From assembly GCA_051294905.1 (NCBI GenBank), contig CM119378.1, positions 9,424,001-9,488,000 of the forward strand: a stretch of 64,000 bases of DNA, given 5' to 3'. Under the pieces are notes generated by a model that saw only the letters and a program-made list of their open reading frames with translations, searched no databases and had not been told where the DNA came from. The DNA comes from Botryllus schlosseri (lineage: Eukaryota). The stretch's first letter is position 1. Each line of letters starts with the position of its first letter. Positions 1 to 20,399 of the stretch are shown in pieces. Position numbers and translations under genes: made by a program.

Positions 1-2
1 GG

Positions 3-953
3 ACCAGTTTTCTCATGCAGGTCTTTATTTTCGCCAGAGGACATTTCGCTCTGGATGTCAGTTGTAGTAGTCGCCATGCAACTATGGGCCGGATTCCTAT
101 CGTCATCCGGATAAGTGCATCCGCGAGAGTGTTCTGGACCAGTTTTCTCGTGCAGGTCCATCTTTACGCCAGCGGGGATTCCACGCTCGACGTCTTCCTT
201 AACGGTGTCAGCAGGCATTCCTGTCTCAACACCTATAGTTTCCCATGGGTTCTGTGTGACGTAAGTTGCTAATTTCAACTCGTCGCTCGCACCAGTGGTT
301 ATTTCCATCTCGGTACTCGCGCCAACGGCCATTTTCCGCTCCACGCTAAATTGGTTTGCAGCATCCATCAACCCATCGTTGGTTACAGTGTAGCTAGTAC
401 TGCTTCCAACTTCGGTTCCGTTACCTTGGTCATAATGATTCCCTTCGAGTAATGATGCTAAAGACAGCTCCTCATTTGCGTTAGACGGGGTTTTGAATTC
501 CGTAGTTACGCCTGGTAATTGTTGGACTTCCTCAATCCATTTCAGCCCTACGATATTAAGTGGGACTCCTGGTCCGGTTACAAATGGAACGGGCAGTCCA
601 CCAATATCAATCACTACAAAAGAGTCCACTTGGGACGAGCCACCTATTCCAGTTAATTCCATGTCTATTGGTTGACGTTTTTCCCAGCTTCGTGGATATT
701 TAGTTATAACGACCTTTTTCATTATCAAATTGGGGATGCTCCCCGTGTCAGCTAGGAATTTTGTACCAGTTGCTGTATCAATTAAATACAACAACTGGCC
801 TCCAAACAATTCCGTAAAGTCGGGCTGTAGGGGGTCATCCGGCATATCAAGAAATGTAAATAAGGGTAATGATGAGTTATGTACAGTTTTTGTATGTTGA
901 ATTATTAAATTGTCTGGGAGCTGATTCACCGGATCAATCAGCACCCCAAGGCG
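3..953 (-). CDS. pol: Retropepsin-type aspartic protease and start of Pol, in the -1 frame relative to gag; open to the window edge and missed by the ORF track
   Basis: Manual translation gives 317 codons without a stop: FLADTGSIPNLI (D-T-G at 749-741), flap-like LTGIGG, C-terminal NIVGLKWI. An acidic linker follows, with DLHEKTGP repeated at 45-aa spacing. Confidence 0.9.
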
Positions 954-959
954 TTTTTT
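916..959 (-). promoter_or_regulatory. -1 programmed ribosomal frameshift signal: slippery heptamer A AAA AAC (959-953), 6-nt spacer, hairpin (946-916)
   Basis: The heptamer is in the gag frame, 4 sense codons before the gag TGA, and a -1 slip lands in the protease frame. Hairpin GGG-U-GCUGAUU / AAUCAGC-U-CCC has 10 pairs, one U-U mismatch and a 9-nt loop. The same heptamer is used at MMTV and HTLV-1 gag-pro. Confidence 0.88.
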
Positions 960-3778
960 GAAAGTCGTATACCTTGATTCAGTTCCTCGTCCGTCCAATA
1001 TGAAGCATCATATTGACGCGGCCGATCATGATATTGAGGTTTCGTCCAGGCCACTTGGGTATTTCCCCCAGATGGACGTGCAGGTGGTCCATGAGGACCC
1101 CATTGATCCCTATCATGCCAGTGGGTTCTATCTCGGTTTTTTGGCCTGGTATCATAATAGGCTTCGCACAGAGCGGTCCTCTGTGTAAACGAGGGTGAAC
1201 CTTGAGCAGCCAGATATCGATCAAGTCCTTCAATTGTTAGTATGTTATTTCTCGCAAGGAACGGTTTCCAGTTTCGTTCTGCAGATTCTTTAACATGAGG
1301 GGGTACAGGTCGTGCTCGCCCACGAATTACCCATCCTAATTCCTCATCCCTAGCAAGAACCTTATCGTTTAGCCACAGTATGAACTTAGCCACGCAATTT
1401 CGGGATTGATGTCCCGGTGCCTTACAGTAGTAACAGACGGACAGGGATTGTCCCTGAGTGGGATTTAGATACAATCCTAGAGGAGCGAAAATATTCGGGT
1501 TTCCAAGAAAATTGTATCTCTCACCTTGACTATCCGCAATGTTGCGGGCTTCCTGGCTGCTGGACGGCGTAATTTGTGAGTTGTCTGCACCCATCCCGGA
1601 ATCTTGCGTATTCGCCACTCGCGGACTTCGGTTTGCGGTTTCCGGTCCTGGACTAGCGCGTGAAGATCTTGTTGTTCTTGTTGGCTGTCCGTTAGGTCTC
1701 GATGATGCGTTACGCCCATCCTGTTGGTGTACTGGCCTGGCCCTCGGGCCTTGTCCACGCCTACCAAATCCATTACCATTCATGATGCGGGTGGGGAATC
1801 GATTGTTGCGTGCTTTACGTTGAGGATTCCGACGTTGTAACGGTACCTGGTCTGCATTAGCAAGCTGACGCGGTGAGATCCCCCTAGGTGATCCAGGAGG
1901 TGTTGCCCCCCCAAAGTTATTCAGTGGTTGTAGGGGCGAGGGTGATTGTACCACCGGCGGTGGGGTGTCACCAGGTGGAGGAGGAGTGTTGAGCTGACTG
2001 TCCTCTCTTCCATGAGTGGGATAACTGTGCACTATTTGTCCTGCAGGTTGAACATTATAAATGTGTACTGGCGGCAATGACGGTTTTGTATCAAGGACTT
2101 CCTTTGTTTCCTGATACCTGGGGCGTGTCTCTTGTTCATCCAGGAACTCGGAGTTCCAAACAAGTTGTAGTTCCTCCGCAACGTCCCGCCAAGTTTTATC
2201 CTCTTCCCAGCCTCGCAACATCAGTCTGAGCGCTTCTGGAAGGCGTTGTCGTAAATTTCGGAAAAGACGTAATCCATCTGGATTATCCTCAATAAGACTA
2301 TCCATGTCTATTTCTAGTTGCTTCAAGGCGCTATTCAGCCGAGGTAGCGGCTCATCCTCCCAACGATAATTTCTGCGGAATTCTCCAATGATCTTTTCGT
2401 CATTTACCAAACCCTGGGGATTGGATAAGGAAAGAGATCGCATCACCGATTCCCACTCTGCTTCTCCCGAATTGGTATTAAAAAAATTTCCCAGTTGGGT
2501 AGCCTGTTTGTGTCGACCAGCAGCCCTCAATTTCTTCTGCAGTGCATTAGCCAAAATAACATCCACATCCGTATTTCCAGGACCGTGGCGTATTCTTCGC
2601 ATCGAATTCTCCATCCATTTTAGCAGTGGCATGTCACCAGGGTCCATCATTAGCTGAAGCATTTCTTTTTCTGATTGGATTTTAGCAGACACATTCAGCA
2701 ATGGGTCCGTAATACCGGAATAGCGGTGCGGCTGTTGTCGCCCTGACCTTTGGTTACGATCGTTAGGAGTAGAGGTAAAACGAGGCATATTTGGATAAGT
2801 TAGTTTGTTAGGTTGGCCCTCATTCGTATCTTCATCCGACAAATCTTCGGAACTTCGTGGCGACTTCCAAATTTCCCTTATTTCTCGAGCCAATACTCGC
2901 ATACGATCATCGTAATCGTCGTCTTTGGTGTCTTCCGCATCTTCTGTAGCATCACTCTGTTCTCTGAAGTTCACCCGTCGGGATTCGCCATCCGCACTTC
3001 CAGCTCGTCTTCGAGAATCCTTCTCCTTGTTACGACGTTCCTGCCATCCTCGATACCCCATATACTTATCTAAGGGGCTCTTTTTTGGTTTTGTCTCTAT
3101 TTGAGGCTCCCCATTTCTGAGGTCAATCAAGAAGGGATTAGTAGGTGTATATTTCTTTTGTTTGGCGCGTGCACCACTACCCACATGGAAACAAGGCGCC
3201 GTTCCCCTGTCGGTATCTGACAACGCGGTCGAGCCGGAAAGTGGTAGCTTAGGATAGACAGCCGTTACAGTATGACAATCCAAACCTTTGCGAACCGTCA
3301 TGGTTGGCCCTGGTGTTACGTCCCGTATTCGCTGCTCAGAGAGAGGAACGTAAGCTGGTGGGTCATCTTCCGGTGCATTTGGAGATACTGTCAAAACGGG
3401 AGATTGAATGCTATCTCGTGTAGCCTGTGCATGTGACTTTCCGAGCTCAAATTCTGAAGTAAGGATGTCATTCAGCGCGTCGGTGGAGACCTTCCCGCTG
3501 ACTTTTGTTGTGGCATCACAAACAGCTTTGAGGTCTGCTTGAGCTTTTCGAACCTCTTTCTTTGCCTTTTCTAACCCTTTCATGGTTTCCGGCAGAGCTG
3601 TCTTTACCTCTTTCAATAGCTCTGTTTGTTCAGCCACGTCCTTAGCCAGTTGTCTTTCTTGTCGCCGGACATCTTCATGGCGTTTTTGTGTAGCTTTAAG
3701 CAAGGTAATCCCTTGTTTGAGTTCGTCTGTTGCTTCTGACGGCTTTTTCCTTTTGAATGCTTTCAACATCCTTCGCAT
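938..3778 (-). CDS. gag: Gag polyprotein, 946 aa
   Basis: Basic N-terminus and coiled coil; PPAY (3350-3361) and YPKL (3245-3256) motifs; helical capsid-like region (LRQRLPEALRLML...TWRDVAEELQLVW); Pro/Arg-rich linker; CX2CX4HX4C knuckle CYYCKAPGHQSRNC (1394-1435). Lies downstream of a PBS and upstream of a protease. Confidence 0.92.
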   Translation of the reverse strand: MRRMLKAFKRKKPSEATDELKQGITLLKATQKRHEDVRRQERQLAKDVAEQTELLKEVKTALPETMKGLEKAKKEVRKAQADLKAVCDATTKVSGKVSTDALNDILTSEFELGKSHAQATRDSIQSPVLTVSPNAPEDDPPAYVPLSEQRIRDVTPGPTMTVRKGLDCHTVTAVYPKLPLSGSTALSDTDRGTAPCFHVGSGARAKQKKYTPTNPFLIDLRNGEPQIETKPKKSPLDKYMGYRGWQERRNKEKDSRRRAGSADGESRRVNFREQSDATEDAEDTKDDDYDDRMRVLAREIREIWKSPRSSEDLSDEDTNEGQPNKLTYPNMPRFTSTPNDRNQRSGRQQPHRYSGITDPLLNVSAKIQSEKEMLQLMMDPGDMPLLKWMENSMRRIRHGPGNTDVDVILANALQKKLRAAGRHKQATQLGNFFNTNSGEAEWESVMRSLSLSNPQGLVNDEKIIGEFRRNYRWEDEPLPRLNSALKQLEIDMDSLIEDNPDGLRLFRNLRQRLPEALRLMLRGWEEDKTWRDVAEELQLVWNSEFLDEQETRPRYQETKEVLDTKPSLPPVHIYNVQPAGQIVHSYPTHGREDSQLNTPPPPGDTPPPVVQSPSPLQPLNNFGGATPPGSPRGISPRQLANADQVPLQRRNPQRKARNNRFPTRIMNGNGFGRRGQGPRARPVHQQDGRNASSRPNGQPTRTTRSSRASPGPETANRSPRVANTQDSGMGADNSQITPSSSQEARNIADSQGERYNFLGNPNIFAPLGLYLNPTQGQSLSVCYYCKAPGHQSRNCVAKFILWLNDKVLARDEELGWVIRGRARPVPPHVKESAERNWKPFLARNNILTIEGLDRYLAAQGSPSFTQRTALCEAYYDTRPKNRDRTHWHDRDQWGPHGPPARPSGGNTQVAWTKPQYHDRPRQYDASYWTDEELNQGIRLSKNALGC

Positions 3779-3786
3779 CGTCCTTC

Positions 3787-4056
3787 CTATTGACTGGAGA
3801 AGGTACTGTTGACAGAAGTTATTAGATCAGGTGAAGATATGTTAAAATGGATTGTAGATCCTTGCGGCGTAATCGTGGGAGGAACGTAAGCAGTAGATGC
3901 GCTGCTGTTGGATCCCAAAAATACGTTCAATAGATTAGAAAGCGCTCCAGGCGATACGTGCAGATAGATTGCTGCCAATATAATCAGGAGAGATATAGAA
4001 GATGAAAGCAAGGATACGACAAGTACAAGTTTTACGATGGTCGTCTTAGAAAGCAT
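3787..4056 (-). CDS. 89-aa upstream ORF between PBS and gag; predicted signal-anchored glycopeptide
   Basis: ATG start, ~25-aa hydrophobic N-terminal stretch, three N-X-S/T sequons (NSS, NIS, NST). It is the first AUG after the SL copy and stops 8 nt before the gag ATG. Confidence 0.65.
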   Translation of the reverse strand: MLSKTTIVKLVLVVSLLSSSISLLIILAAIYLHVSPGALSNLLNVFLGSNSSASTAYVPPTITPQGSTIHFNISSPDLITSVNSTFSSQ

Positions 4057-4086
4057 CGATTGGTCAACGTCTGAACACCGGAAGTA

Positions 4087-4104
4087 TCCCCGTACTGGCC
4101 ACCA
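4087..4104 (-). promoter_or_regulatory. Primer-binding site complementary to the 3' end of tRNA-Ile(AAU)
   Basis: Minus strand reads TGGTGGCCAGTACGGGGA(T). This is complementary to ...ATCCCCGTACTGGCCA+CCA of metazoan cytoplasmic tRNA-Ile as I recall it, and includes the non-templated CCA. Located 30 nt upstream of the first ORF. Confidence 0.9.
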
Positions 4105-4354
4105 ATTTTGTTTTTATAGTGCAGCTCCACAACGATTGTTATGCGAGTAGTCCACACTTGTTCGGGTTACTTCCTAGTAAAGCGTTGCCTTTCGTTTGCT
4201 TTAGTATCCTGACGACGTCTGTAAATGGTGATTGGAGCAACAACAGTTGTAGGATTGTTTCTTCTCAAGTTGACAATGACCCTGGGGTCCAGAATTTTAA
4301 TCTACCTTTATCTACTGATAATCTATAAGCTTTAATACAACCAAATACTCCAAT
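4105..4354 (-). other. Putative R/U5 part of the 5' LTR
   Basis: 250 nt between the SL copy and the PBS, with no AUG, two ATTAAA hexamers, and an end of ...AAAACAAAAT abutting the PBS. Boundaries cannot be confirmed without the second LTR. Confidence 0.5.
4330..4354 (-). other. Genome-encoded copy of the stolidobranch ascidian spliced leader
   Basis: ATTGGAGTATTTGGTTGTATTAAAG versus the 24-nt Halocynthia-type SL ATTGGAGTATTTGGTTGTATTAAG (recalled from memory), differing by one inserted A. Not followed by a GT donor. Confidence 0.8.
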
Positions 4355-4365
4355 CAGTTAATTGC

Positions 4366-4427
4366 GCAGACGGAAATGTGGTAACTCCATGCAAAACTTG
4401 GTTAAAATTGGCATACACATCATCCAT
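4366..4427 (-). promoter_or_regulatory. Promoter-like block, copy 1 (upstream of SL/PBS/gag)
   Basis: ~62-bp block duplicated at 5750-5810 (gcagacggaaatg.ggtaactc.atg.aaaact...ttaaa.ttggcatacac.tcat.cat); contains an ETS-like CGGAAAT. Confidence 0.55.
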
Positions 4428-5244
4428 CAATTATAACACAAGGCATGGTTTAACCTATACATCATCATACACAATTAACAAACATTTTCAATACTCCAAG
4501 GTTTGTTTTCGCATATAATTGATGCGACGGCCTTTCCTGCCGTAAATATCAATACATTTCAAATATCAATTCCTATTCATCATAATATTCTTCAGTATAC
4601 TTGCGATTATAATGTTTCAATCAATTATAACATATCAACATTAAGGACGTCATGTCTTCAGTGCAATTAAAATCACTATGATCCTCTTAATCGGACCGCA
4701 TGATACTACCCTTAACTAAGATGCCACTTAATACAGGCATTGCAGATTGTTCAAACAGGTTTTAGTGTTCATTATTTAGTTAATTTAATGGTTTAGTTGT
4801 TCAAGATTTTATAAGATTTTATATTGTTTTTCATTAATTATTTATTTAGCCTATAATAAGGGTTCGCACCGTAAACTTCGGATTTTGTTTCCCTAAAACT
4901 AGGGCTTCAATCCCTAGGGTCCTGCTTAAAAATAAGGGCGTAGCAGTGTATAACGCCTTATATACATACTGTAGGGATGACGAGGCCCCACAGTATTAAA
5001 TTCATTCGCAGTTAGCAAAACAGCAATAATCCGTACAAACTGTAAAACATTTCTGAATATAGGTTGACCAAACCATTCAATAAACCGTGAACGTGACGGA
5101 ATCAATTTTCTGTGCAACAAAATACAATAAAATGACTCTATGCAAGACGCAATAGAGATTCTTGACCATTCTATATTCCGTAGGTCAGTTATAACACTTT
5201 ATATACATACATGAAAACAATAGCATTCCTGGGCTTAATATTTC

Positions 5245-5694
5245 TCATTGAACTAAGACATCTATAGTATCCTCAGGATAAAAGGGTTCCGTAGATTCGG
5301 CTTGTTCCTTCACCCATTCATCCGTGATCAAATTTTCCATAGGATGCATTCGAGCCATATAGTTGAACCACAAAAGTTTAGCCTTTTCATAATTTCCAGA
5401 GGCCATGTCTCTTATCATTTTATGGTTTTCTAGTATTCCTTGGTAGTCAATAACAAGGGGCTTCTCATCAGAAAGAGTTTCTTTAATTCGTTTGAAAAAA
5501 CATTTCAATCCAAGTTTGATATATTTGGGCGGGGTCCTTGACCATTCGTACCATCTATGAGAGGGGGGCATTCTTGCTTCATATCGTTCTTTGAATAACC
5601 AAAAATAAAAGATCAAATCTTGTTCCGCCACATTAGATCCAACTAGTTTGGTGACATCAACATCACCTTTATCATTTACTTCAGCGTTATTCAT
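5245..5694 (-). CDS. Accessory protein, family A (149 aa), unknown function
   Basis: Intact ATG ORF; motif H..I......NYEKAKLLW....RMHP.....DEW shared with three neighbours; closest to 7652-8047. Confidence 0.8.
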   Translation of the reverse strand: MNNAEVNDKGDVDVTKLVGSNVAEQDLIFYFWLFKERYEARMPPSHRWYEWSRTPPKYIKLGLKCFFKRIKETLSDEKPLVIDYQGILENHKMIRDMASGNYEKAKLLWFNYMARMHPMENLITDEWVKEQAESTEPFYPEDTIDVLVQ

Positions 5695-5749
5695 ACTTTT
5701 AATTTTTCTGAAAGCAATTAATCATCCAGTTAAGGTTCTATTTGGTCAT

Positions 5750-5810
5750 GCAGACGGAAATGGGGTAACTCAATGTAAAACTCAATTAAATTGGCATACA
5801 CGTCATACAT
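5750..5810 (-). promoter_or_regulatory. Promoter-like block, copy 2 (upstream of a family A gene)
   Basis: Aligns with 4366-4427; contains CGGAAAT and a CRE-like TGACGT. Confidence 0.55.
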
Positions 5811-5860
5811 GATTAATAGACATTCAACCTAGCAAAAAATACAATATACAATCCAGGCAT

Positions 5861-6316
5861 TCATTGTTCATAATCACATCCATTATATTTCATTTTATGT
5901 ATCAGTATAGCAGCTCTAACATCAGAGGGAAAAGTATCATTAAAGAGTTTATCATTGGTATAAATACAAAATCCGTTTCTATCAGAACAAGGCATTCTTT
6001 CTAGTACCCATTCTTCAGGTACAACATCCGAAGCAGGATGTAATCCAACACAGAAGACAAACCAACAAAACTTTGCATGTTCGTAATTTTCAAACAGTAT
6101 CATGCGGGCGATGGCTAAATGCTTTTTGTATAGCGCATCAAACAGTTTGTCGGATACTCTCAGGTTGCAAATCCTCAAGTAAGGTGTCATAAATATCTCC
6201 AGTTCATCCCGTGTGGTTGCAGCCCATCTGCTGAAGTCTTTGTGTTCATATTTCTTCTCAAAGGAATCGAAGAAAACGTCAAGTTCATGCTTTACTCTAG
6301 CAATTTTATCACCCAT
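5861..6316 (-). CDS. Accessory protein, family A (151 aa)
   Basis: HLAIARMILFENYEHAKFCW...LHPASDVVPEEW; closest to 8053-8508. Confidence 0.8.
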   Translation of the reverse strand: MGDKIARVKHELDVFFDSFEKKYEHKDFSRWAATTRDELEIFMTPYLRICNLRVSDKLFDALYKKHLAIARMILFENYEHAKFCWFVFCVGLHPASDVVPEEWVLERMPCSDRNGFCIYTNDKLFNDTFPSDVRAAILIHKMKYNGCDYEQ

Positions 6317-6452
6317 ATTTTCTTAATATAGAGAATTTTACGTTGATTATTGGACCGGAAACTTTTCTTACTGACATTTTTAACACATATAAGTATAACA
6401 ACACTTCCAAAATATTCAATAATTGTGATGAGCATACTGGATGCATAGTAAT

Positions 6453-6908
6453 TTACTTAGCATACATATCAGTCCAGTTTCTTGCCGTTCTTTGATAGCA
6501 ATCATAGTCATCCCTATACAGTCTAGCGCTCTCAACATCCATTGGATCTTCTGGATTAGGGGAAGCCAATAATGACGAAATCGAGACCAATACTTTTCCC
6601 AACGTTAAAGCGGGTGACCATTCATTTGCAAGAATGTCAATACATATGGTACCCTTACGGCTTATATTCGGATGGAAAATCTTGGTTTCAAATTTGATCT
6701 TCGGAGGCTTGAATGGATATTCCGTTGGAAATTCAATTCTAAGAAGAAATGTTCCTTTTTCATATGGTGTTTTTGGTGGTCCTCGCAAAAGTGCTTGCCA
6801 AACATAGATATCCGACTCGTCCAATGGCCCTGCTTGCAAAATTACAGGATTTGTTCGTATTTCTTGATTAATTTTTCGCCGTTCAACGTATAATCTATGT
6901 TTTGCCAT
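6453..6908 (-). CDS. Ubiquitin-conjugating enzyme E2 (UBC4/UBE2D-like), intronless
   Basis: FPTEYPFKPP, HPN motif, and catalytic Cys in FHPNISRKGTICIDIL...WSPAL. The ATG is at 6908; the ORF track start at 6932 is a TTG. Confidence 0.95.
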   Translation of the reverse strand: MAKHRLYVERRKINQEIRTNPVILQAGPLDESDIYVWQALLRGPPKTPYEKGTFLLRIEFPTEYPFKPPKIKFETKIFHPNISRKGTICIDILANEWSPALTLGKVLVSISSLLASPNPEDPMDVESARLYRDDYDCYQRTARNWTDMYAK

Positions 6909-6968
6909 TCGATGCAGACTTATACTATCCAATAAAACTTACACACATAAAAGAAAAGGGGAACATCA

Positions 6969-7493
6969 CTAATTCAATCGTTTATCCATAGCGTACATGT
7001 CACGTGAAAATCCGGCAATAGTTCTGCTAGTAATGTTCCAATCTTCATCAACATTAGCTATAGCCAATACATATCGTAGAAATAAGTACAAATAGTACGC
7101 AGGACTTTCTCCAAAGTTTTCTTCCACAATGCGCTCCAGTACTTTTTTTGCGCATTCCAATTGTTCCGCCACCTCATGGTCCCGGTATAACCAGACAAGA
7201 AAATCTTTCAATACATACTCCATGTCATTGGCTGTCAACTTCGGAAAGTTTTCTATTCTTTCTTTTATTCGTTCATGTACAACTCCCATCTTTAGCCAAG
7301 CAACTCTGCTGTCAGGTATCGTAGGGTATAGACACTGTCTGAACTTGTTCCGATTCAATTCCTTCTTCTGGGGATCTTTAGGCACATACTCATACTTTTC
7401 ATGATTAACTTCCAACATGTCACAATCAAAGATCAAATAAATTATTAGTGTCTTAAAATTCCTTACACAAAAAACCCAAACATTATTAAACAT
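6969..7493 (-). CDS. Accessory protein (174 aa), unknown
   Basis: Intact ATG ORF inside the array with an SL-like relic 9 nt upstream; no recognised domain. Confidence 0.7.
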   Translation of the reverse strand: MFNNVWVFCVRNFKTLIIYLIFDCDMLEVNHEKYEYVPKDPQKKELNRNKFRQCLYPTIPDSRVAWLKMGVVHERIKERIENFPKLTANDMEYVLKDFLVWLYRDHEVAEQLECAKKVLERIVEENFGESPAYYLYLFLRYVLAIANVDEDWNITSRTIAGFSRDMYAMDKRLN

Positions 7494-7651
7494 TCAACGA
7501 ATCTTAATCAGCAAACCAACTTAATTACACACATAAAAGTTTTTAATTCTAGTTGTTATATTAGATATAGTACATGGTTTTTGAAATCACAAAGTTCTTT
7601 ATATCCAATTGATATAGTGGAAAATTTGATGCATTATATGTATCATTTCAG

Positions 7652-8047
7652 TTAATCATCTTTCAAACATCCTTTTATCCATTGTTCTGAAAAGTTCTCC
7701 TTCATGGGATGCATACGAACAATATGTTGGTACCAAAGAAATTTGGCTTCCTTATAGTTTCCCAGTGTAATAATTGCAATCCTATTATGTTCTTTGATAG
7801 CAGCATGATAACCCAGAGCCTTGCCTTGCGGAGATAATGCACTCCCGTAAACTTTGTCAACATACAGCTTCAGCATTCCAACAATGTCATTGGGTCTTGT
7901 CATAGCCCATCTTTGCCATCTGTCGGAAATTTCCACATCTTCTTCATAATATTTACAGAACATGTCAAAATAATATTTCAAGTCGCACACTGCAGATTCA
8001 TATCCCATTCGCAATGATTCCTGGTTACTTCTATTTCTTTGAGACAT
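7652..8047 (-). CDS. Accessory protein, family A (131 aa)
   Basis: HNRIAIITLGNYKEAKFLW...RMHPMKENFSEQW. Confidence 0.8.
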   Translation of the reverse strand: MSQRNRSNQESLRMGYESAVCDLKYYFDMFCKYYEEDVEISDRWQRWAMTRPNDIVGMLKLYVDKVYGSALSPQGKALGYHAAIKEHNRIAIITLGNYKEAKFLWYQHIVRMHPMKENFSEQWIKGCLKDD

Positions 8048-8052
8048 TCTTC

Positions 8053-8508
8053 TTAATCGTGTAATATAACAATTTTCGAACAGGCGTCTTCTAAAATCGG
8101 AATAGCAACAGTTTCAAATTCTCGAGCATTCAGAAGTAATGTTGCAGAATCTTTTAATTCCATTTGTGGTAATCTTTCATCCAGAAATTCTTCTGGTAGA
8201 TACTTATGAGCCGGATGTAATTTTAGAACAAGTCCAAACCATGTATATTGGGCCAGATCAAAATCTTTTGTAACAAAAACGCGAGCAATATCACTATGTG
8301 CGTCATAAAGCTTATCAAAAAGCTTTTCTGTCACATTCGCAAAACAATGATGAAGGTATTTCTTTATTAATTTTTTGAATTTTTCCTTTGGGGTATTTTT
8401 CCATATCTCAAAATTTTGATGATGGTATTCCTGTTCAAACTCATCATAGTATTCATTAATTTGTTTCTTGGCTAGCGTAATTTCCCAATTCTCTAATACT
8501 CTAGTCAT
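8053..8508 (-). CDS. Accessory protein, family A (151 aa)
   Basis: HSDIARVFVTKDFDLAQYTW...LHPAHKYLPEEF; an SL-like relic directly abuts the ATG. Confidence 0.8.
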   Translation of the reverse strand: MTRVLENWEITLAKKQINEYYDEFEQEYHHQNFEIWKNTPKEKFKKLIKKYLHHCFANVTEKLFDKLYDAHSDIARVFVTKDFDLAQYTWFGLVLKLHPAHKYLPEEFLDERLPQMELKDSATLLLNAREFETVAIPILEDACSKIVILHD

Positions 8509-8637
8509 CTTAATACAGAATAAAATACTTTAAAATCATATGTTCAATTTTACGCGCAAAAGTAACTAGTAACGTTATGCATTATACATATGCATCAAGA
8601 GCATTCATGCCACAAAATAATAGTCCTGCCTGCTCCA

Positions 8638-10329
8638 TCAAGCTCTATACACCTTTATCTTTTCCAGTATTGTTTCACCACAAATGTTGCATCTTTCGGT
8701 ATTTGTTGCACATTTTTCACAACTACATAAATGTCCACAAGGTATGAAAGTAATTTCACTTTTGTTTCTCTTGCAATTTTTGCAAAGCACAACCTCTTGT
8801 ATTTCTTTCAAACTTTGCGCGATCTCATCCACCGACATTGTTTCTGCAACTGCTGCTTCTTTCGTTTCTTTGTTGTTGTTTACTTCGTGATTATTTTCAG
8901 ATATACTATCGCCTTGTTGTGTTGTTTTCGTTGGACTGGCGGTAATTGTATTTACTGTCTCTAGTAAATCCTGAATTATATCACCAGTAGAGAAAGGATC
9001 ATTAATCTGTCTATTTATAGTTCCTTCTATTTGATCTCTCGTAAATCCCATGTCTTCCAGTTGCATCCTGTTTATGTATTGTCTAGATAACCTTGGTCGA
9101 TTATGGTTCCTTCGTATCTCCTCTCGTGGTGCATCAAGACATATTGCATTCCTTATCGATGGTCGATTGAGATTGGGATGTTCATCTCTTAGTCGTAAAA
9201 CGAAATCAATACCTTTCATTTGCAAAACATATTCACAACCAGGAAACCACTTTGCATGTTCTGTCCACGGCTCATCATTGTAGTTCCAGTTTTGTAATCC
9301 TCCATTGCAGTAAAAGCATTTCGCCCTGTCCGAATCCCCTAAATAATACATACCCGCTTTAGCCAATTGTTCCGTTGTTGCGAGGATCCTGGGCCATTTT
9401 TCATTAAACGAAGATATTCTTTGCTGTAACGATGTCATATGCAAATTTATCGGGTAAAGGCAAGGGAATCTTTCCACCAACTGGAGTTGTTCTTCTGGCG
9501 ATGGATCCGGAGGTTCTCCCCTATTAGTAGTTAACCTTTCAATTTTTATTTTAAGTTCATTATCTGCCTGATTTCTCTCGGAGTCTGTCAAGGGCATATT
9601 TCCTGCATACTCGTTATTTGCCATTTTGCATTTTGTAAAATGTCTTTTATGTTGTTCAAGGACATTATCAGTGGGTGCCCAATTTCTCAGTACTCCTGAG
9701 CATGAAAAACATTGCGCTCTGTCAAGGTTTCCCAGGTAAAAAAATCCCTGTTTTGCCAATTCCCCTACCAAGTATGGAGTAGGATAGGAAGGCCATTTGT
9801 CAAAGGTTCTTCTTCTCTCTAGTTCACTCCTCAAATTTGCTGATCGCAATGAAGTCTCATGTTCTTGGTCACAAATGTTCGCAAACACGGTTTGTGGTAA
9901 GGGACATTTTTCCTCTTTGATAGTCGGTCTTTGCACATTCCGATTAGTTTGCTGACTTCTTGTAGTAAGGTTAAGGTGGCACCTCATTTGTTCAAAAAGG
10001 AGCCTCCTTAAGTAATTTGAAATAGGCAAGTTATAACCATGTTGTATGGTCACCATGTCACAAGTAGATTTATGCCACTTGTCATCAAAAGGATCATCTC
10101 CAGTGACCCATTTTTCCACAGATACGCCACAGCAGTAACATCTTACTCTATCTTGAAATCCTGTCCAATAGAAACCAGCAGCGGCTAGATAGCTCGGTAT
10201 CACAGGAGTTTCTTTCGAAAAATGTTTGAACGTTGCAAGTCTGTAATACTCAACCCGGTGATCTCCAGGTGGAATATAAACGCAATTATGTCCAGGAGGA
10301 TCACGATCTCTTTTCATCAGAATGCCCAT
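8638..10329 (-). CDS. iap: Inhibitor of apoptosis protein (3 BIR, UBA-like segment, RING), 563 aa, intronless
   Basis: Three BIR repeats (LAAAGFY...C..C...W...D...H...C pattern), LEDMGF UBA-like segment, C-terminal RING CKNC...PCGHLCSCEKC...CNIC ending IKVYRA. Confidence 0.96.
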   Translation of the reverse strand: MGILMKRDRDPPGHNCVYIPPGDHRVEYYRLATFKHFSKETPVIPSYLAAAGFYWTGFQDRVRCYCCGVSVEKWVTGDDPFDDKWHKSTCDMVTIQHGYNLPISNYLRRLLFEQMRCHLNLTTRSQQTNRNVQRPTIKEEKCPLPQTVFANICDQEHETSLRSANLRSELERRRTFDKWPSYPTPYLVGELAKQGFFYLGNLDRAQCFSCSGVLRNWAPTDNVLEQHKRHFTKCKMANNEYAGNMPLTDSERNQADNELKIKIERLTTNRGEPPDPSPEEQLQLVERFPCLYPINLHMTSLQQRISSFNEKWPRILATTEQLAKAGMYYLGDSDRAKCFYCNGGLQNWNYNDEPWTEHAKWFPGCEYVLQMKGIDFVLRLRDEHPNLNRPSIRNAICLDAPREEIRRNHNRPRLSRQYINRMQLEDMGFTRDQIEGTINRQINDPFSTGDIIQDLLETVNTITASPTKTTQQGDSISENNHEVNNNKETKEAAVAETMSVDEIAQSLKEIQEVVLCKNCKRNKSEITFIPCGHLCSCEKCATNTERCNICGETILEKIKVYRA

Positions 10330-10569
10330 AGTTTCAATTCGGTCATTTCTCGGTGTAATTGCTTTCGATGGAACAGGCGTTCAATAATACAGATCAAAAT
10401 GTCTAAATATAACCATACCAATCCAACATTCTAGTAATAATACATAAACATTCTGTTAAAAAAAAATATCATTATATAAGATTTCTCGAGGTTCCAAATT
10501 AGCATTGGTTCGATAAATTCCATGGATTGGGTGTAAAGTCATTATTTAATTGTCAATATGTGACAACAG

Positions 10570-11229
10570 TTAATGGAGATGTATGTCCAAAATATAGGAA
10601 TTTTCCAGATATTGATTCATTGACTGGGCTTTCTTATCTACTTTCTTCGAGTATATGTATATATATGCATCCATAACGGAGGTATCAGAACTCAACGACA
10701 TATAACCTTTTACTCCTAGGTTGGTTTGGCTGTGCCAAGTCCATTTGCAATTCGCATCTGTAACATAAGCCAGACTATTTGCACATACTAACAATCTTGT
10801 ATGGCCCATTATTACTCCTCGTATCACTTCATATATTACTCGTCTCATACATAGGGGAGGTATTCTTCGGACAACTCCCATCAAAGTTTCCGTAATTATA
10901 GTCCATGTGTCGTCATCGGGTCGTATTGTCTGTTTACTCCATACTATGAGTCGTTGTCGTGAGGAATCTTTCACAATGGCAGAATCCTGGGAGTCGTCAG
11001 AGTCCGTATTACTAGAAATTTCGTCCTCCGGCGTTTCTCCATGGGGTTTCCTGTCGCCACATGGAAGTTGTCTTTTGTACCAATTATGTTCTTGTTCAAA
11101 AAAGTTTTTCAACATATCCATCAGCAACTTTAGACATCCAGTATTTTTTCGCACGTCGATTTTATCTAGTTGATTTATTAATTTACAAAAAATAGCAGTA
11201 TTATGATCCTGTACTTCAGATAGATACAT
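10570..11229 (-). CDS. Accessory protein, family B (219 aa)
   Basis: YEVIRGVIM...WHSQTNLGVKGYMS shared with 14247-14813. Confidence 0.8.
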   Translation of the reverse strand: MYLSEVQDHNTAIFCKLINQLDKIDVRKNTGCLKLLMDMLKNFFEQEHNWYKRQLPCGDRKPHGETPEDEISSNTDSDDSQDSAIVKDSSRQRLIVWSKQTIRPDDDTWTIITETLMGVVRRIPPLCMRRVIYEVIRGVIMGHTRLLVCANSLAYVTDANCKWTWHSQTNLGVKGYMSLSSDTSVMDAYIYIYSKKVDKKAQSMNQYLENSYILDIHLH

Positions 11230-11482
11230 TTTATCCCTGCGAATATAACAATAATGTGCAATAACAATAAAAGATCCTGATTCAAGATTTCAATGCATCA
11301 AATCTCGATATTAGATATCATATAACATACATGTAATACATTCACTCACTATGACACAACAATAATAGAAACATTTCATAGGTTTTCTAAACATGTAGAT
11401 TATCATACATGCCTCTATTGCTTCCCTAAAGATTCAAATCTCTCATCTCTAATGATATTGCACATAGTGACCAACATTGTTT

Positions 11483-12430
11483 TCAATGTTCCAGTGTCCT
11501 AAAATTAGGATCAAGAGCAATTATCTCTAAAAATAGTTGAAACCTTTCCTCCAAGGCCACCCTTCTTTTCCAGAGCCACTCCTGTAAGTAATGAGGAATA
11601 AGTGATCTTGATACCCCATTCAGCCTTCTAATAGCAGCTTTAAAAAAATTCCAAGACACCTCGATCAATTGTGTATTTATGCCTTCTGTAGTGACAAATT
11701 CGCGATCATGATTAACTACTGAATGTTTATAATTCATTCCCAGGCTTTCCAACTTGCGGTAACTGGCAAATGAATCAGTCCATATAGTGGATCCCTCTTT
11801 TACGTGTTTCATAATTATTTCTGATAATACAGAGGTTTTTCTCCCTTCTTCAGGTACCAATTCTGCAAACATTTCTCGCGTTTTCATATCTATTCCAGCC
11901 AAAACCCAGCGTTGGCGTATTATTCTTCCACGATTAAATTTTCTTTTGGCCACAAACGTCTCATCAATTTGAATTACATGTGATTTACCTTGTGATATTC
12001 CCCCTATTAGGGTACCTCTTCTTTCCATTTCCACAGAGCATATCTTACGAAGTTTCTTGGTCCAATTCACCATTGTTCTCTTGCTGACGTGTGCTTCAAA
12101 AGCTATTTGTCGTTGAGATACATCTATGGTCCAAAGATAAATCATCATTACAAGTTGGGTGAGTCTTATTTTACTTCCTTCAAATAGTGATCCTTTCCTT
12201 ATGGACGTGGTAGTCCTGCACTTTGAAACCGGACACCTCCATCTATATCCATCCATAGTTCTTTTGCATTTTTCTTCATTCATTTGTTGTCCACAATTAA
12301 AACATGTTGCCTTTTGAACAAGGAGTTGCCGTGATCGCAGAAACTTTATACATTTTCGTTCACTTGATATTATACCACATCGAGCAAGATTGAATAGATT
12401 TTTTCTTTTTCTGGATTCTTTAGTCTTCAT
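11483..12430 (-). CDS. IS1595/ISXO2-like (Merlin-type) DDE transposase, 315 aa
   Basis: N-terminal Zn ribbon (CFNC...WRCPVSKC), HTH-like region, catalytic QIDET / WTDSFASY / TQLIEVSW, C-terminal YLQEWLWKR. No TIRs seen. Confidence 0.9.
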   Translation of the reverse strand: MKTKESRKRKNLFNLARCGIISSERKCIKFLRSRQLLVQKATCFNCGQQMNEEKCKRTMDGYRWRCPVSKCRTTTSIRKGSLFEGSKIRLTQLVMMIYLWTIDVSQRQIAFEAHVSKRTMVNWTKKLRKICSVEMERRGTLIGGISQGKSHVIQIDETFVAKRKFNRGRIIRQRWVLAGIDMKTREMFAELVPEEGRKTSVLSEIIMKHVKEGSTIWTDSFASYRKLESLGMNYKHSVVNHDREFVTTEGINTQLIEVSWNFFKAAIRRLNGVSRSLIPHYLQEWLWKRRVALEERFQLFLEIIALDPNFRTLEH

Positions 12431-12499
12431 ATTTATTTAAAACTTTATTGTCTTTTCAAAAGTAGTTTTCTGTATATACAAACATTGGAAAGTTAAATT

Positions 12500-13006
12500 T
12501 CATGCAGGCACTTTCAAAGTCATAAATTGACAATCGGCTTCTTTTAATGATATTCCCTGCGTCTTTGCCCATGCGTAGATCTGAACTTCCGGAAAGATTA
12601 TCCACATTATGAGATCTCTTTCAGAATCTCCCCTTTTTATAAATTCCCTCATTTCAGGATTTACCCTTTTCAAAATTGTTACCCAGTTTATGCAAATTTC
12701 TGCAAAAGCCATTTGTATAGGTTTTTCAGGGTAAATGCTTCCTGTATAAATTTCTTCCCACTCATTTTCAACCAGATGTTTCCCAGGCCAATGATTGTTG
12801 TATGTGGTGACACCATACTTTTGTTTCCAATATAGTAGTCGTGGATTTGATTCGTCATACATTATATCACATAAGTGATCCGTCAATGTATATGTTGTTA
12901 ACAGAAACTTCAGCGACTTTAATCCATTGTCTATTAGTGTTTCTTTTTGGGGTATCCATGTCGTATGTTGTATTTCTGGATCATCACAACGTAATCCCAA
13001 ACACAT
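12500..13006 (-). CDS. Accessory protein, family C (168 aa)
   Basis: MCLGLRCD, NPRLLYWKQ and ERDLIMWIIFPEVQIYAWA are shared with 16238-17098. Confidence 0.8.
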   Translation of the reverse strand: MCLGLRCDDPEIQHTTWIPQKETLIDNGLKSLKFLLTTYTLTDHLCDIMYDESNPRLLYWKQKYGVTTYNNHWPGKHLVENEWEEIYTGSIYPEKPIQMAFAEICINWVTILKRVNPEMREFIKRGDSERDLIMWIIFPEVQIYAWAKTQGISLKEADCQFMTLKVPA

Positions 13007-13110
13007 TTTTATAATTTAAGTAAATCCTTTATACAACATATTTAAATTCAGTTACATAGTACCATATTACAATTATTACACCAATTTTCAATTTATATAC
13101 TTAATCATTT

Positions 13111-14160
13111 TTACATTAGTTTAATAATAACTAGCCAAACAATAACGGTAAATGTACACTTTGAATGTATAGTCACACGATTGGAAAGACTTTTCATTTC
13201 GTCATCATATAGTCTTGATTGTTTACGTACATAGGGTCTTCTGGTAGGTGTTTCATTATTATATCTATTTAATTTTAAAACTTCCAGATCTGGTAATTTT
13301 CTCAATAGGGAGTCATTAAGAAATTGAACATGATTATAACTAAGATCAATTGTATGCAGATATCTGAACGATATGTTGGAGGACAGAGAAAAATATTGCA
13401 AGTTATTATAGTACAACGTTAATCTCTCTAAATTACATAAAGATTCAAGTATTGTCATATCAAATTCCACCAGTTTATTTTCATCCAAGTTCAAAGTTTC
13501 CAGTTTCCTCAGTCCTTTGAACGCCCCTTCTTCTATAGCGCTTATTGCGTTTCTTGATAAGTCTAGTATTCTTAAATGACGTAAATGAATGAATGTTCCA
13601 TTCTTTAGTTTCTTTATGACATTGTTGTCCAAATATAGTCTTTTTAACTTTTCCATGCTTGCAAATTTCGATCCTTCTATTTCCGCCAGCAAATTACTGC
13701 TTAAGTACAAACTTTCCAGTTGGTGTAAGCCTGCAAAGCTTTCTTTTTCAATTCGTGTGATGTAGTTTCGCATCAAATTTATCTCCCTAAGCTTTTCATT
13801 TTTGCAGAAGACCCCTCCTGGTATGGTTTGGATTTTATTCCAACCACAATGCAACACCTCTACGTCTTTATACTTTTCCAATTGTCCTTTGGTTATTTCC
13901 CGTAGGCAGCTGTCGTTGATGAATATCTTTATTGTGTTCCGACAAGATTTTGCCAGGTATATCTTGTCAGGATCCGGAATTCTTGTATAACTCGAATGGT
14001 CACACCAAAGTACCAAATTGCTTCCTTGCATGCATTCCGGGTATAACATGGTTCGTCTTTCATCCATTGTACACTTCTTTTGTTCTATTGTTTCCGGATA
14101 AATAGCATAACACATGCCTAGCCATAATACTAGTAGTTCCACTCGGTTCATTTTACTCAT
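13111..14160 (-). CDS. Signal-peptide-bearing leucine-rich-repeat protein (349 aa) with a hydrophobic C-terminus
   Basis: Signal peptide (VELLVLWLGMCYA), Cys-rich N-cap, about 9 24-aa extracellular-type LRRs (LxxLxLxxNxL), terminal CTFTVIVWLVIIKLM; no TIR domain. Confidence 0.92.
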   Translation of the reverse strand: MSKMNRVELLVLWLGMCYAIYPETIEQKKCTMDERRTMLYPECMQGSNLVLWCDHSSYTRIPDPDKIYLAKSCRNTIKIFINDSCLREITKGQLEKYKDVEVLHCGWNKIQTIPGGVFCKNEKLREINLMRNYITRIEKESFAGLHQLESLYLSSNLLAEIEGSKFASMEKLKRLYLDNNVIKKLKNGTFIHLRHLRILDLSRNAISAIEEGAFKGLRKLETLNLDENKLVEFDMTILESLCNLERLTLYYNNLQYFSLSSNISFRYLHTIDLSYNHVQFLNDSLLRKLPDLEVLKLNRYNNETPTRRPYVRKQSRLYDDEMKSLSNRVTIHSKCTFTVIVWLVIIKLM

Positions 14161-14246
14161 GAATTAGATAACCCACTTTGTTACTCTATACCTTCGAAAA
14201 AGTGTCCTTTGTAAGTCAAAATCTTATTTACAGTCGTTGTCATTAC

Positions 14247-14813
14247 TCATGATTGTTCCGGTATTATAGAGTCAATGTTCACACTTTCCCCTTCGTAGGG
14301 GTAAGGATGTATTTCTATACGTCTTATCCTTTTTGTTCGCCAATGTATTGAACTTGAATAGCCTTTTAGGCCCAAATTATTCTGGCAATTCCATTGTTCC
14401 ATATGTGGCGGATCTTTACAAATTTCTCTCTCCTGGTACACGTCCTTTGTTATATTAGTGTTTGTAAGTTTCATCACAAGTCCTCTAATTAATTCATACA
14501 ACATGACTCTTCTTCCCAAAGAGGTGTATTCCTTTGCTCTTATTTCAAATATCTCTTCTGCCACATGGTTGAATTTATCAAGAATTTCTTCGGTTAATTC
14601 CTCATCTAGGGCTACCTCTTCTAGGCCATCGTCTGTTTGTTTAACCCAATCGGCTTGGTCCGTAAGCAATTCCCATACTTTTTCTTTAAACTGGTATCTC
14701 TCATATTCGCTGTTATATTCTTTAAGATTCAATAGATCCAACTCGTCATATACATCGTACAAATGACACCAATTTGTTGAATCGTAACCTTCAATATAAT
14801 CAAAATCTAGCAT
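14247..14813 (-). CDS. Accessory protein, family B (~188 aa)
   Basis: YELIRGLVM...WNCQNNLGLKGYSS. First in-frame ATG is at 14813; the ORF track start at 14870 is a TTG. Confidence 0.78.
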   Translation of the reverse strand: MLDFDYIEGYDSTNWCHLYDVYDELDLLNLKEYNSEYERYQFKEKVWELLTDQADWVKQTDDGLEEVALDEELTEEILDKFNHVAEEIFEIRAKEYTSLGRRVMLYELIRGLVMKLTNTNITKDVYQEREICKDPPHMEQWNCQNNLGLKGYSSSIHWRTKRIRRIEIHPYPYEGESVNIDSIIPEQS

Positions 14814-15888
14814 TCTTTTTTCAAACAAAATAGCAATTTCGCACAATTTACCGTTTTCAGGATATGACAATTCTCAAGACTCATGTTATTACTTTTACTT
14901 TTCACTCATAACTTATCAAGTATACTCCATTTATTAATTTATTAATCACCCAATACTTATTAGGCAATAAATCTCTCCCCCCCACAAGGGATTTAATTAT
15001 TTTATAATTTTCTATTTTCTGGTTTTTATTTATATAATTTTTTTTTCTCATTAAGATTTTATCTCTTATATAGCTTTTATCATTCGGTATTAGCAATAAT
15101 TTTATCATTTTTATGATCTATAAACACAATCTGACATTTTATTTTTTTGAAGATTTTTTTAGTGGGGAAAATAATACGACATATCAATTTAAACATTATT
15201 AAAAGATAATATTACTCATCATCCTTGCCTTCCCTTCCATAAGAAATGTTTTGACCCGAGTTTCTCTGAATGGCGAAACTAATTTATTCAAGGATCATTT
15301 ATACAAGTATTACACAATTACGTCTCATAGAGACTATTGTAGGAAGGGTGCCATGAGACAAGAATGTGAGCAATTTGCAATATGTTACTTTACTAAACTA
15401 TTACCTAATTAAATATTGGGTAAAAGACTAGAAGCTAAGCTAATTTTTTACGCATCTTATGTATAGTACCATAAAGAATTTACATAATCAGAAAAAATTT
15501 TAATAACAGCAATAACTCAAATAGCAGCAAATTAGTGTGAGGCTCACACAAAGAGATCTTGGCAGAGCGCAAAGCGTGGGCAAAACGGAAAAAATTACGC
15601 TCACGTCATTCTTTATAAAATATAAAATAATTCGATTAGCATAACATATAAGTATGAACACGAGGTGATTTGTGATAGGGTAGGTTGTCTGGGGCCGTTA
15701 CAGACTAAATTTTAACACAAAAATTGCAGCCGAAAATTCATATATAACATTCAATATTATAGAAAACAACACCGTACAATTCTTCATAATTTACAATAAC
15801 AAGTTCTTCTCGAATTTAAAAAAGTTTTTGCAATAAAGATAGGTCGATCTTGCATTCAAGTACTCAAGTTCTCATAGTCCCCGGGATG

Positions 15889-16155
15889 TCATTCTAGGGG
15901 AGGTGATAGCGGGAACAATCCCAGCGATTGATCAATGTATCGGAATCTTTTAGTAAAAAGGGAAACTGTATTAATAACTCTGAGTAAATATATATCGTAA
16001 AATACAGGTATATAGTTTCCACTTTTGCTAATCTCAAGTTTCACTATACCCGGCTTCTATACTTTTTCCGTTAAGTTTGACCTTTTGGTAGTGGTGCCGA
16101 ATTGATAAATTGTCCTAAACCACCACCGGTCAGCCCTAAATAATTCAGTTATCAT
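15889..16155 (-). pseudogene. Possible disrupted accessory gene (89 codons with one internal TAG at 16057-16059)
   Basis: ATAAG-ccATG start resembles the neighbours; MITELFRADRWWFRTIYQFG...EKV*KPGIVKLEISKSGNYIPVF continues in frame. Confidence 0.35.
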
Positions 16156-16237
16156 GGCTTATCTAATAGGCTATCCCTAAAAGTCCAGATCAATCAAGAT
16201 AATTTCTAGATCAAACTAATAGTAGTTTATTTTAAAA

Positions 16238-17098
16238 TCAGCCCATATTACCACTAGAGGCAGCATGTGATCCATCTACACTGGGTCTCCGTAAAACTAC
16301 CATTCGGGTCGGAGCCTCTGGTCTGTTTGGAAACCTACTGTCTCTACTGGTTGAAGATTCAATATCAAACATCAATGTAGTTTCCGAATTGGTGTTTTTG
16401 ACTAATTGTTTGTCTCCCTCTTTTTTTAACGAGCTTTTAAAGGTTGAATCCGACACTTGGTCAATCGGTAGAATAAAAACGCCTCCCAAATAACCAAACG
16501 TGCTCGTGGACCCGTATGTAAATCTCCATTGTTCTAGATTTCCCCCAAATAGGAACTCAAATTCTGCATCCATCCTACATCTCGTAAAACAAACTGTTCG
16601 CATGTTTTTTGCCCCCCGATATTGTTGTAACAGGAGAGCTATGGCGGTTATTATCGCTTCTGGATATAACACATAAAGCACGATATGTCCTTTATCTCTT
16701 TCAGTGTTTTGGTCTAGTCCTTTGTGCATACTACAAGCCTCTTTCAAATAGTCATGGCATAATGTCATGAGTTCAAAAATCTGCCCGGTATTCTTGAAAT
16801 ACGGTTTTACGTGTCTCATAAGGTAACATTGTTTACATTCACCGACCCCTACCGGGTGAAAAGGCTTTCCTATTTTTATCCAGTCCTCCTTGGTGTACAT
16901 ACTTTGTTGCCAATATTGTACCCTTGGATTGTCCCGCTCACAAGTGCCGAACAAGAGGCCCATCAAACGATCCCGAACCGGCGCAGTTTTTATAGTTTCC
17001 ATTACCATCTGCTGCCTTTGCGTAAGATCGAAATGCATTGCCCACTCGTAGACAACCTTGTGATCCGTATTAGGGTCGCACAACAGCCCGTAGCACAT
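16238..17098 (-). CDS. Accessory protein, family C (~286 aa)
   Basis: MCYGLLCD, NPRVQYWQQ, ERDKGHIVLYVLYPEAIITAIA. ATG at 17098; the ORF track start at 17110 is a TTG. Confidence 0.8.
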   Translation of the reverse strand: MCYGLLCDPNTDHKVVYEWAMHFDLTQRQQMVMETIKTAPVRDRLMGLLFGTCERDNPRVQYWQQSMYTKEDWIKIGKPFHPVGVGECKQCYLMRHVKPYFKNTGQIFELMTLCHDYLKEACSMHKGLDQNTERDKGHIVLYVLYPEAIITAIALLLQQYRGAKNMRTVCFTRCRMDAEFEFLFGGNLEQWRFTYGSTSTFGYLGGVFILPIDQVSDSTFKSSLKKEGDKQLVKNTNSETTLMFDIESSTSRDSRFPNRPEAPTRMVVLRRPSVDGSHAASSGNMG

Positions 17099-20317: not shown

Positions 20318-20399
20318 GGCCAAATATCTTCAAATATAGGAGCAGAAAAAAATATAAATATAATATAAATATATTAATGAATGTGTCCTAGTGATTGAA

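Follow-up and report, generated by a model that had tools for sequence, protein, structure and literature searches.

The E2 and IAP genes and their carrier

The window analysed here is a stretch of 64,000 nucleotides from the ascidian Botryllus schlosseri (assembly GCA_051294905.1, contig CM119378.1, positions 9,424,001 to 9,488,000). It contains a gene for a ubiquitin-conjugating enzyme (E2) and a gene for an inhibitor of apoptosis protein (IAP), and both lie in a mobile, retrovirus-like element of about 40 kb, the features of which are collected in Table 1. Copy number and conservation support the view that the two are captured cargo genes of this element, retained by purifying selection.

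The 4-kb block spanning E2 and IAP matches 46 places in the genome, of which at least 21 are full length and dispersed, at 87-100% identity (40 of 188 candidates were scored). There are 26 full-length copies of E2 at 91% identity or more, 24 of them free of stop codons, and the frame is open in all ten of the best loci. In the same ten loci, eight IAP copies are full length and stop-free, one matches from residue 24 and one carries a single stop. Ratios of nonsynonymous to synonymous substitution (dN/dS), here and below from pairwise Nei-Gojobori comparison with the window copy, were 0.13-0.22 (IAP) and 0.09-0.22 (E2), one of the families compared standing at a synonymous distance (dS) of 1.3-1.5; the family-2 and C4 rows for a missing transposase, which are paralogue comparisons, and most family-3 rows, where dS is saturated, were left out. 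Capture by a retroelement, as an earlier note on this DNA had proposed, is thus borne out, and the two do not behave as ordinary single-copy host genes. They are two of 15 same-strand open reading frames (ORFs) of at least 130 aa between positions 5245 and 19466.

The E2 has the UBC fold, the HPN motif and the catalytic cysteine, and its top-scoring solved relatives are UBE2D/UbcH5, in agreement with its first description as an intact UBE2D-like enzyme. Orthology to canonical UBE2D did not hold up: the gene falls in a divergent, expanded clade apart from three canonical-looking host genes, with support of 100/100. A tandem array on C1 gave 23 matches to this divergent intronless family, again separate from canonical UBE2D. 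The array (G000:C1:34.12-34.49 Mb; L226, L235-L248) comprises about 23 intronless UBE2D-like genes, and its distal members are the closest relatives of the element E2 outside the element (79%).

In the IAP, a Pfam scan found three BIR stretches and a C-terminal C3HC4 RING, whose nearest match is cIAP2/XIAP and in which all zinc ligands are present; the XIAP/cIAP-like assignment of the earlier note therefore stands. The BIR3-UBA-RING layout it had given holds for the BIRs and the RING, and less well for the UBA, for which Pfam gave no match and which is represented by a segment with the sequence MGF, alignable to the corresponding MGF stretch in ascidian homologues. The His/Cys spacing of BIR1 is non-canonical, as it is in the 6 ascidian homologues aligned. 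The closest relatives are IAPs of Styela clava (44% identity), which points to an origin in an ascidian IAP family; a host IAP with an intron is located on C2. Each of the two genes is one uninterrupted single-exon ORF, as had been noted. For E2 the missing introns are no evidence of retro-capture, because the host paralogues are intronless as well.

Table 1. Features of the element, by position in the window (position 1 is the first nucleotide)
Feature	Position	Strand	Basis or remark
Other terminus	G000:C8:9421115		2,885 bases left of the window
pol start, protease motif DTG	1-960	-	Runs on 2,610 bases left of the window as reverse transcriptase (RT), RNase H (RH) and Tpt1/KptA domain
gag-like ORF, 946 aa, zinc knuckle	938-3778	-	Ends over candidate -1 frameshift heptamer at 953-959
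Hydrophobic ORF, 89 aa, between primer-binding site (PBS) and gag	3787-4056	-	ORF list
PBS, 19/19 complementary to host tRNA-Ile(AAT) 3' end with CCA	4086-4104	-	tRNA comparison
Host spliced leader (SL) copy, 24 nt, candidate R region for first strand transfer	4331-4354	-	Reads, locus comparison
Two cargo ORFs (151, 149 aa)	5245-6316	-	ORF list
E2, 151 aa, divergent UBE2D-like	6453-6908	-	PF00179 E 4e-47; catalytic Cys89 present, as are the surface motifs YPF and SPA
Three cargo ORFs (151, 131, 174 aa) between IAP and E2	6969-8508	-	ORF list
IAP, 563 aa: three BIRs (spacing of BIR1 non-canonical), UBA-like MGF segment, RING whose E2-contact positions are non-canonical	8638-10329	-	Pfam, homologue alignments
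Cargo ORF, 219 aa, distant relative of the 188-aa ORF	10570-11229	-	Sequence comparison
tnpB, second ISXO2-like DDE transposase, 39% identical to tnpA, DDE intact	11483-12430	-	Pfam, alignment
Six cargo ORFs: 173, 172, 286, 188, 349 (secreted-type LRR protein), 168 aa	12500-19466	-	ORF list, Pfam
Mostly non-coding part, ~10 kb, common to copies	19500-29590	-	Copy alignment
GP2 C-terminal part, Thr-rich, membrane-anchored	29593-31921	-	Copy alignment, motifs
Insertion of 7.7 kb interrupting GP2	31921-39612	.	Copy alignment; not in 3 other aligned copies
GP2 N-terminal part, second glycoprotein	39612-40767	-	1160 aa in two other copies; N-terminal domain paralogous to GP1
GP1, 838 aa, envelope-like: signal peptide, furin-type site at 480, hydrophobic 484-511, long helices, TM 767-801	40855-43371	-	Motifs
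tnpA, Merlin/IS1595-type (ISXO2-like) DDE transposase, N-terminal CxxC..CxxC motif	43501-44484	-	PF12762
5' terminus, imperfect 23-bp inverted repeat starting GG, 8-bp target duplication directly outside	44719-44741	-	17/23 repeat positions match in copy compared

Transposon ends and the machinery of reverse transcription

The window can be aligned with three other copies from a point 2,885 bases to its left as far as position 44741, except for the 7.7-kb insertion. The end motif was located in 29 and 27 of 30 loci for the two ends, and pairing them gave 18 insertions, 13 of which are 38-40.4 kb long. Target-site duplications (TSDs) flank all 18, being exact 8-bp in 16, exact 9-bp in one and 8-bp with one mismatch in the last. 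The ends are imperfect inverted repeats of the form GG...CC that agree at 17 of 23 positions. Between these fixed ends the element is mobile as a single unit, and it produces target duplications of 8-9 bp.

Terminal GG and TSDs of 8-9 bp define Merlin transposons (PMC8101967). The element shares both with Merlin/IS1595, along with a DDE_Tnp_IS1595 transposase; its imperfect terminal inverted repeat (TIR) of about 23 bp, with 17 of 23 positions matching, compares with 24-462 bp given for the group. It differs in its length of 40 kb and in having gag, pol, envelope-like genes, a PBS and 15 cargo ORFs; instead of a single transposase gene and a DNA-only cycle there are two transposases and a selected RT. 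Merlins described in that source have no zinc domain, whereas the transposase of the element has an N-terminal CxxC..CxxC. Both tnpA and tnpB keep D, D and E, and the tnpA triad is invariant in 4/4 aligned. For tnpA, dN/dS is 0.09-0.15 in the two pairs with dS >0.1; for tnpB it is 0.06-0.18 in three pairs and 0.78 in one pair of low divergence. The latter gene is thus a second intact Merlin-type transposase, under selection in three families. Relatives may exist in other ascidians, since identity to tnpA is 43% in an ISXO2 protein of Styela clava (P0377) and 65-75% in four Logan proteins.

Self-alignment revealed no long terminal repeats (LTRs) and no internal repeat of LTR scale, and Pfam found no rve integrase domain in pol. 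This carrier, with Merlin-type ends and neither integrase nor LTR, is the main feature of the locus, and it had escaped the earlier note.

With ends, TSDs and transposases all Merlin-like and no LTR, the element might be a giant cut-and-paste Merlin DNA transposon. Its retroviral genes would then be a captured cassette for particle production or some other purpose, without copying the element as a whole. That a DDE transposase can move very large viral cargo is evident from Teratorn (PMC5601938). We regard this explanation as unlikely, since several features speak for reverse transcription of the element itself. RT-RH is its most constrained gene, with dN/dS of 0.03-0.05 in the four pairs with dS >0.1 (the gag-like ORF has 0.15-0.36). 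The PBS follows host tRNA isodecoders and switches tRNA between families: in 12/12 elements its first 18 bases agree with one or other of the two host tRNA-Ile isodecoders (ten one form, two the other; base 19 varies), and families 2 and 3 have an 18/18 match to tRNA-Thr(AGT). Isodecoder tracking would be expected from primer copying, although a single point change could explain the two forms. Non-autonomous derivatives keep the SL and the PBS: six of eight short derivatives (10-14 kb) have lost RT-RH and retain the terminal regions, SL and PBS, and three show both exact ends with 8-bp TSDs. Finally, two permuted gene orders exist, which are described below. Along the element dS is mosaic (in one pair, for example, gag 0.22, RT 0.009, E2 0.09, LRR 0), a pattern that template switching would give; gene conversion is also possible. 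A protease is indicated by the DTG motif in the window pol and by a Pfam RVP match in a relative (P0007).

RNA reads were mapped on positions 1-20000 of the window, which contain neither element end. Template-switch-oligo reads, numbering 303, 39 and 135 in the three RNA runs, start at 4355, follow the window for about 30 bases and then diverge into varied sequence, and because of this the adjoining 24 nucleotides are read as a copy of the host leader. The copy lies 242-294 bases upstream of the PBS in 11/12 elements. It is error-free in 11 of 15 loci (two of which were picked up via the exact SL motif itself), and the 80 bases on either side fall into types only 33-66% alike. All four combinations of upstream and downstream haplotype around it are found among 12 family-1 loci (4, 4, 1 and 3). 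These patterns suggest that the leader copy serves as the strand-transfer repeat. Read coverage in two single-cell runs peaks in the bin 4003-4669, at depths of 163 and 55, compared with <5 in neighbouring bins. This would fit RNA 3' ends nearby if the libraries are of the 3'-end type; many of these reads match in part and come from relatives, or consist of the leader alone, and the pile-up yielded no poly(A) site call.

SL-like relics had also been proposed upstream of both E2 and IAP. For E2 the match is no better than chance (p=0.46), for IAP it is marginal (p=0.02, uncorrected, among 17 ORFs tested) and loses significance once the 17 tests are allowed for, and neither is repeated in the diverged family 2 (p=0.85 and p=0.25, respectively). 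The best relic candidate precedes the ORF at 8053-8508 (p=0.02, and p=0.004 at the matching place in family 2). The copy that is near-perfect is the one at 4331-4354, away from these genes. Exact copies of the leader occur at 101 places in the genome, many inside these elements, and no true SL RNA gene was identified. One such locus (L196) is a more distant relative of the element with a different PBS-like site.

The nearest database proteins to pol are seven ENA sequences (P0002-P0008) at 40-52% identity, all without rve, among 8,000 candidates drawn from long proteins only. A Tpt1 domain was called in all seven, in four of them weakly, and the next relatives are Gypsy-type polyproteins at 28% identity or less. 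In a FastTree tree of 216 RT-RH domains, built without caulimovirus, retrovirus or DIRS sequences, the four families of the element, the seven ENA proteins and P0199 form one branch with support of 100, apart from about 200 sampled Gypsy-type RTs. The best solved match of the RT profile is PDB 8r0s, which we take to be the RT of CaMV, with 157 bits against 136 for Ty3; it is also ahead of foamy virus and MLV. The Tpt1/KptA RNA 2'-phosphotransferase domain fused to the end of pol (L011:7393-7880) is common to the whole RT clade and is perhaps involved in primer or end processing. Viral contigs contained no related loci, metagenome contigs only distant RTs at 23-26% identity, and a transposase search (14 matches) linked no ISXO2 gene to the contigs of P0002-P0008.

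Of the characters of an LTR retrotransposon or retrovirus the element has gag, protease (PR), RT, RNase H and PBS, and it does not have the rve integrase, the long terminal direct repeats or a TSD of 4-6 bp. With envelope-carrying Ty3/Gypsy elements, retroviruses and the Kuafuorterviruses (PMC11673190) it shares gag, a frameshifted PR-RT-RH, a tRNA PBS, an envelope-like gene and accessory genes, and it differs in the absence of rve integrase and LTRs, in its inverted ends and in the Tpt1 domain that closes pol. Kuafuorterviruses were rejected as a match because they have LTRs and integrase, and KolobokP was rejected for its long terminal direct repeats and 3-5-bp TSDs. Teratorn is the nearest analogue, having a virus-like genome between transposon TIRs, a DDE transposase and cellular homologues; it is a piggyBac-herpesvirus fusion (PMC5601938), whereas here the viral part is reverse-transcribing and the transposase Merlin-type.

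Caulimoviridae and DIRS elements share with it the absence of a retroviral integrase and a circular DNA stage (a presumed one in the element), and a likeness to Caulimoviridae is also seen in the match of its RT profile to 8r0s. Caulimoviruses have no integration enzyme and no envelope. DIRS elements use a tyrosine recombinase and produce no TSD, whereas the element has TSDs and, by Pfam, no DIRS-type tyrosine recombinase among 29 ORFs; nor does it contain an internal copy of either terminus. Host-derived BIR-RING and E2 genes are kept by other virus-like genomes, such as the baculovirus IAP and A224L and I215L of African swine fever virus (ASFV). The IAP described here differs in being a three-BIR protein of cellular type from an ascidian sub-lineage, with an unusual RING and a reverse-transcribing carrier. 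Giant Gypsy elements of planarians (Burro) are reportedly linked to IAP-like cargo, which the literature searched, PMC8532177 included, did not confirm. Neither this architecture nor an IAP-E2 pair in a retroelement is described in the literature searched, with Repbase and most subscription journals outside the coverage.

The E2 and IAP as a possible pair

The joint retention of E2 and IAP is real. The earlier note went further and saw in them a self-contained module for ubiquitination and against apoptosis. As a dedicated and self-sufficient ubiquitin ligase pair, the element RING would use the element E2 to degrade caspases or signalling proteins. Several observations are consistent with this. 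The gene order is the same in families 1 and 2, with dN/dS of 0.17 and 0.09 at the dS of 1.3-1.5 that separates them, and the E2 has its catalytic and E3-binding motifs just as the RING has its zinc ligands. However, three positions of the RING, at which 42, 43 and 48 of 55 homologues carry a hydrophobic residue, Pro and Arg/Lys, respectively, are occupied by N, N and G in 10/10 family-1 copies; from cIAP2 and XIAP we take these to be the positions that bind E2. Unusual RINGs also occur in the nearest Styela IAPs and in one host IAP, so that the RING and the E2 family, both divergent, could have co-evolved.

The arrangement of the genes also argues against a module. They are not adjacent, three of the other cargo ORFs lying between them, and at one related locus an IAP stands beside gag with no E2 in the 10 kb fetched. 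Moreover, the same E2 family travels with other partners. It is carried by multicopy elements that we call Polinton-like, on the basis of protease and capsid-like ORFs that are presumed from motifs and have no Pfam match (L233:3327-8744, at G000:C14:22.57 Mb, and L234:3925-8345, at G000:C4:18.14 Mb). In one of these a Bcl-2 gene (E 1.5e-18) is found beside E2, in the other a caspase-domain gene (E 2.4e-13), and there is no IAP in the 9 kb fetched at either. A prediction of the E2-RING complex without alignments scored 0.01 against a mark of 0.34 and is not evidence either way. We therefore consider a dedicated pair improbable, although an anti-death role for IAP and E2 is plausible. The pairing is the least secure and least novel part of the findings, and the carrier element is the main novelty.

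Gene order, replication and standing of the element

Gene order is not the same in all families. Families 1 and 4 have the order end-tnpA-GP1...gag-pol-end, and family 4 shows 8-bp TSDs at 2/2 loci, one of which lies inside a tandem repeat. The family-3 copy (G000:C1:8880708-8916907; L206-L209) has the order end-noncoding-tnpB-SL-PBS-gag-pol-tnpA-GP1-GP2-end. Its terminal motifs are related, pol and tnpA are 45 bases apart, the TSD is of 8 bp, and neither IAP nor E2 turned up in it. The start of four other loci falls no more than 7 bases from its 5' end, and of the two fetched, one has SL and pol sequence downstream. At the family-2 locus the 5' part (tnpA, GP1, GP2 and the 5' end) was not found in 60 kb. 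When closed into a ring, families 3 and 1 have the same order, and the transposase sits where an integrase would be. Permuted gene orders with the same ring order thus lend support to a circular intermediate.

The model that we find best, and hold to be somewhat more probable than all others together, is a retrovirus-like element that would be reverse-transcribed to a circle and integrated by a transposase. In this model, E2 and IAP derive from the host by capture and are retained in an accessory role by an enveloped element of about 40 kb, the integrase of which may have been replaced by a transposase of the Merlin/IS1595 type. The replicating form would be a circle of the order SL-PBS-gag-pol-transposase-env-env-cargo. 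Its transcription would yield an RNA that is terminally redundant, the repeat being the spliced leader, and this RNA would be reverse-transcribed from a host tRNA primer. The transposase would then open the circle at the abutted inverted ends and insert the element. The IAP might keep the host cell alive via its BIR domains, and the E2 might alter ubiquitin signalling, more likely in parallel than as the partner of the RING.

A number of points weigh against this model. A genomic RNA of 40 kb would be far larger than retroviral genomes. A search of the assembly for an end-to-end junction (ends 20 bases apart or less) gave 0 matches, no circle was seen, and there is no clear polypurine tract near the SL. 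Family 3 is represented by one full copy, the TSD pair of which is one of 5 candidates in a permissive scan, and the model does not account for a direct repeat of 164 bp inside both of its ends, in permuted order. The role of GP1 as a fusogen is suggested by its motifs and by a weak lead to class I fusion proteins in Atlas (0.88-0.90). Expression of the cargo is very low, with a depth of <2 over E2 and most of IAP in three RNA runs.

Excision of a circle would not be needed if the linear integrated copy were transcribed along its whole length and reverse transcription then restored its termini, as in DIRS-type elements. The 164-bp repeat near both ends of family 3 would suit such a scheme. However, family 1 has neither an internal copy of a terminus nor a terminal direct repeat, and the family-3 repeat lies inside the true ends, which a jump between repeats would lose; we think this scheme quite unlikely. 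Least of all, and in our view barely worth retaining even though host IAP and E2 paralogues exist, E2 and IAP might be ordinary host genes or neutral passengers; this reading is refuted by their dispersed full-length copies, by the paired insertions with TSDs and by dN/dS far below 1, and canonical UBE2D genes form a separate clade.

The favoured model of a circle inserted by a transposase has wider implications. The element may represent an undescribed lineage of enveloped reverse-transcribing animal viruses, with genomes of about 40 kb, a circle, a host spliced leader as strand-transfer repeat, a Merlin/IS1595 transposase for integrase and captured regulators of cell death and ubiquitin; we see this as evenly balanced. 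If it is true, the E2 family shared with Polinton-like elements would mark a host-virus conflict over ubiquitin and apoptosis in ascidians; its independent capture there points to a common host target. Orders of retroelements are defined by their mode of integration, that is, by an rve integrase, a tyrosine recombinase or an endonuclease. A selected RT-gag-env element inserting by a Merlin transposase would add another solution to these and serve as a living model of integrase swaps between viruses and DNA transposons. Elements of this type would escape LTR-based annotation. Trans-splicing would gain a new use in the spliced leader as R repeat, a transposase able to insert 40 kb of cargo is of interest as a tool, and IAP and E2 are a case of a retro-like element that has captured accessory genes of the kind known from large DNA viruses.

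Some minor observations concern the remaining parts of the element. GP1 has no Pfam match and no sequence match in PDB, and a single-sequence structure model of it was not used (pLDDT 36). The envelope-like genes, too, are under purifying selection. The 7.7-kb insertion has short inverted ends, with tandem repeats of 12, 24 and 71 bp near them. The element itself adjoins duplicated exons of a sugar-transporter-like host gene (L011:4473-5144, L013). In family 2 there is a reading similar to the 89-aa hydrophobic ORF. One small paralogous family unites the 151- and 131-aa ORFs between IAP and E2 with the two ORFs at 5245-6316. Among the six cargo ORFs at 12500-19466, the four tested have dN/dS of 0.15-0.31 (pairs with dS >0.1), and the secreted-type LRR protein (13111-14160), which is under purifying selection, is a possible receptor decoy. 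No RNA dataset is listed as containing the sequence of the transposase-envelope stretch. In one run, reads join the spliced leader to positions 14607 and 15029 on the opposite strand (6 and 19 reads), which suggests trans-spliced antisense transcripts.

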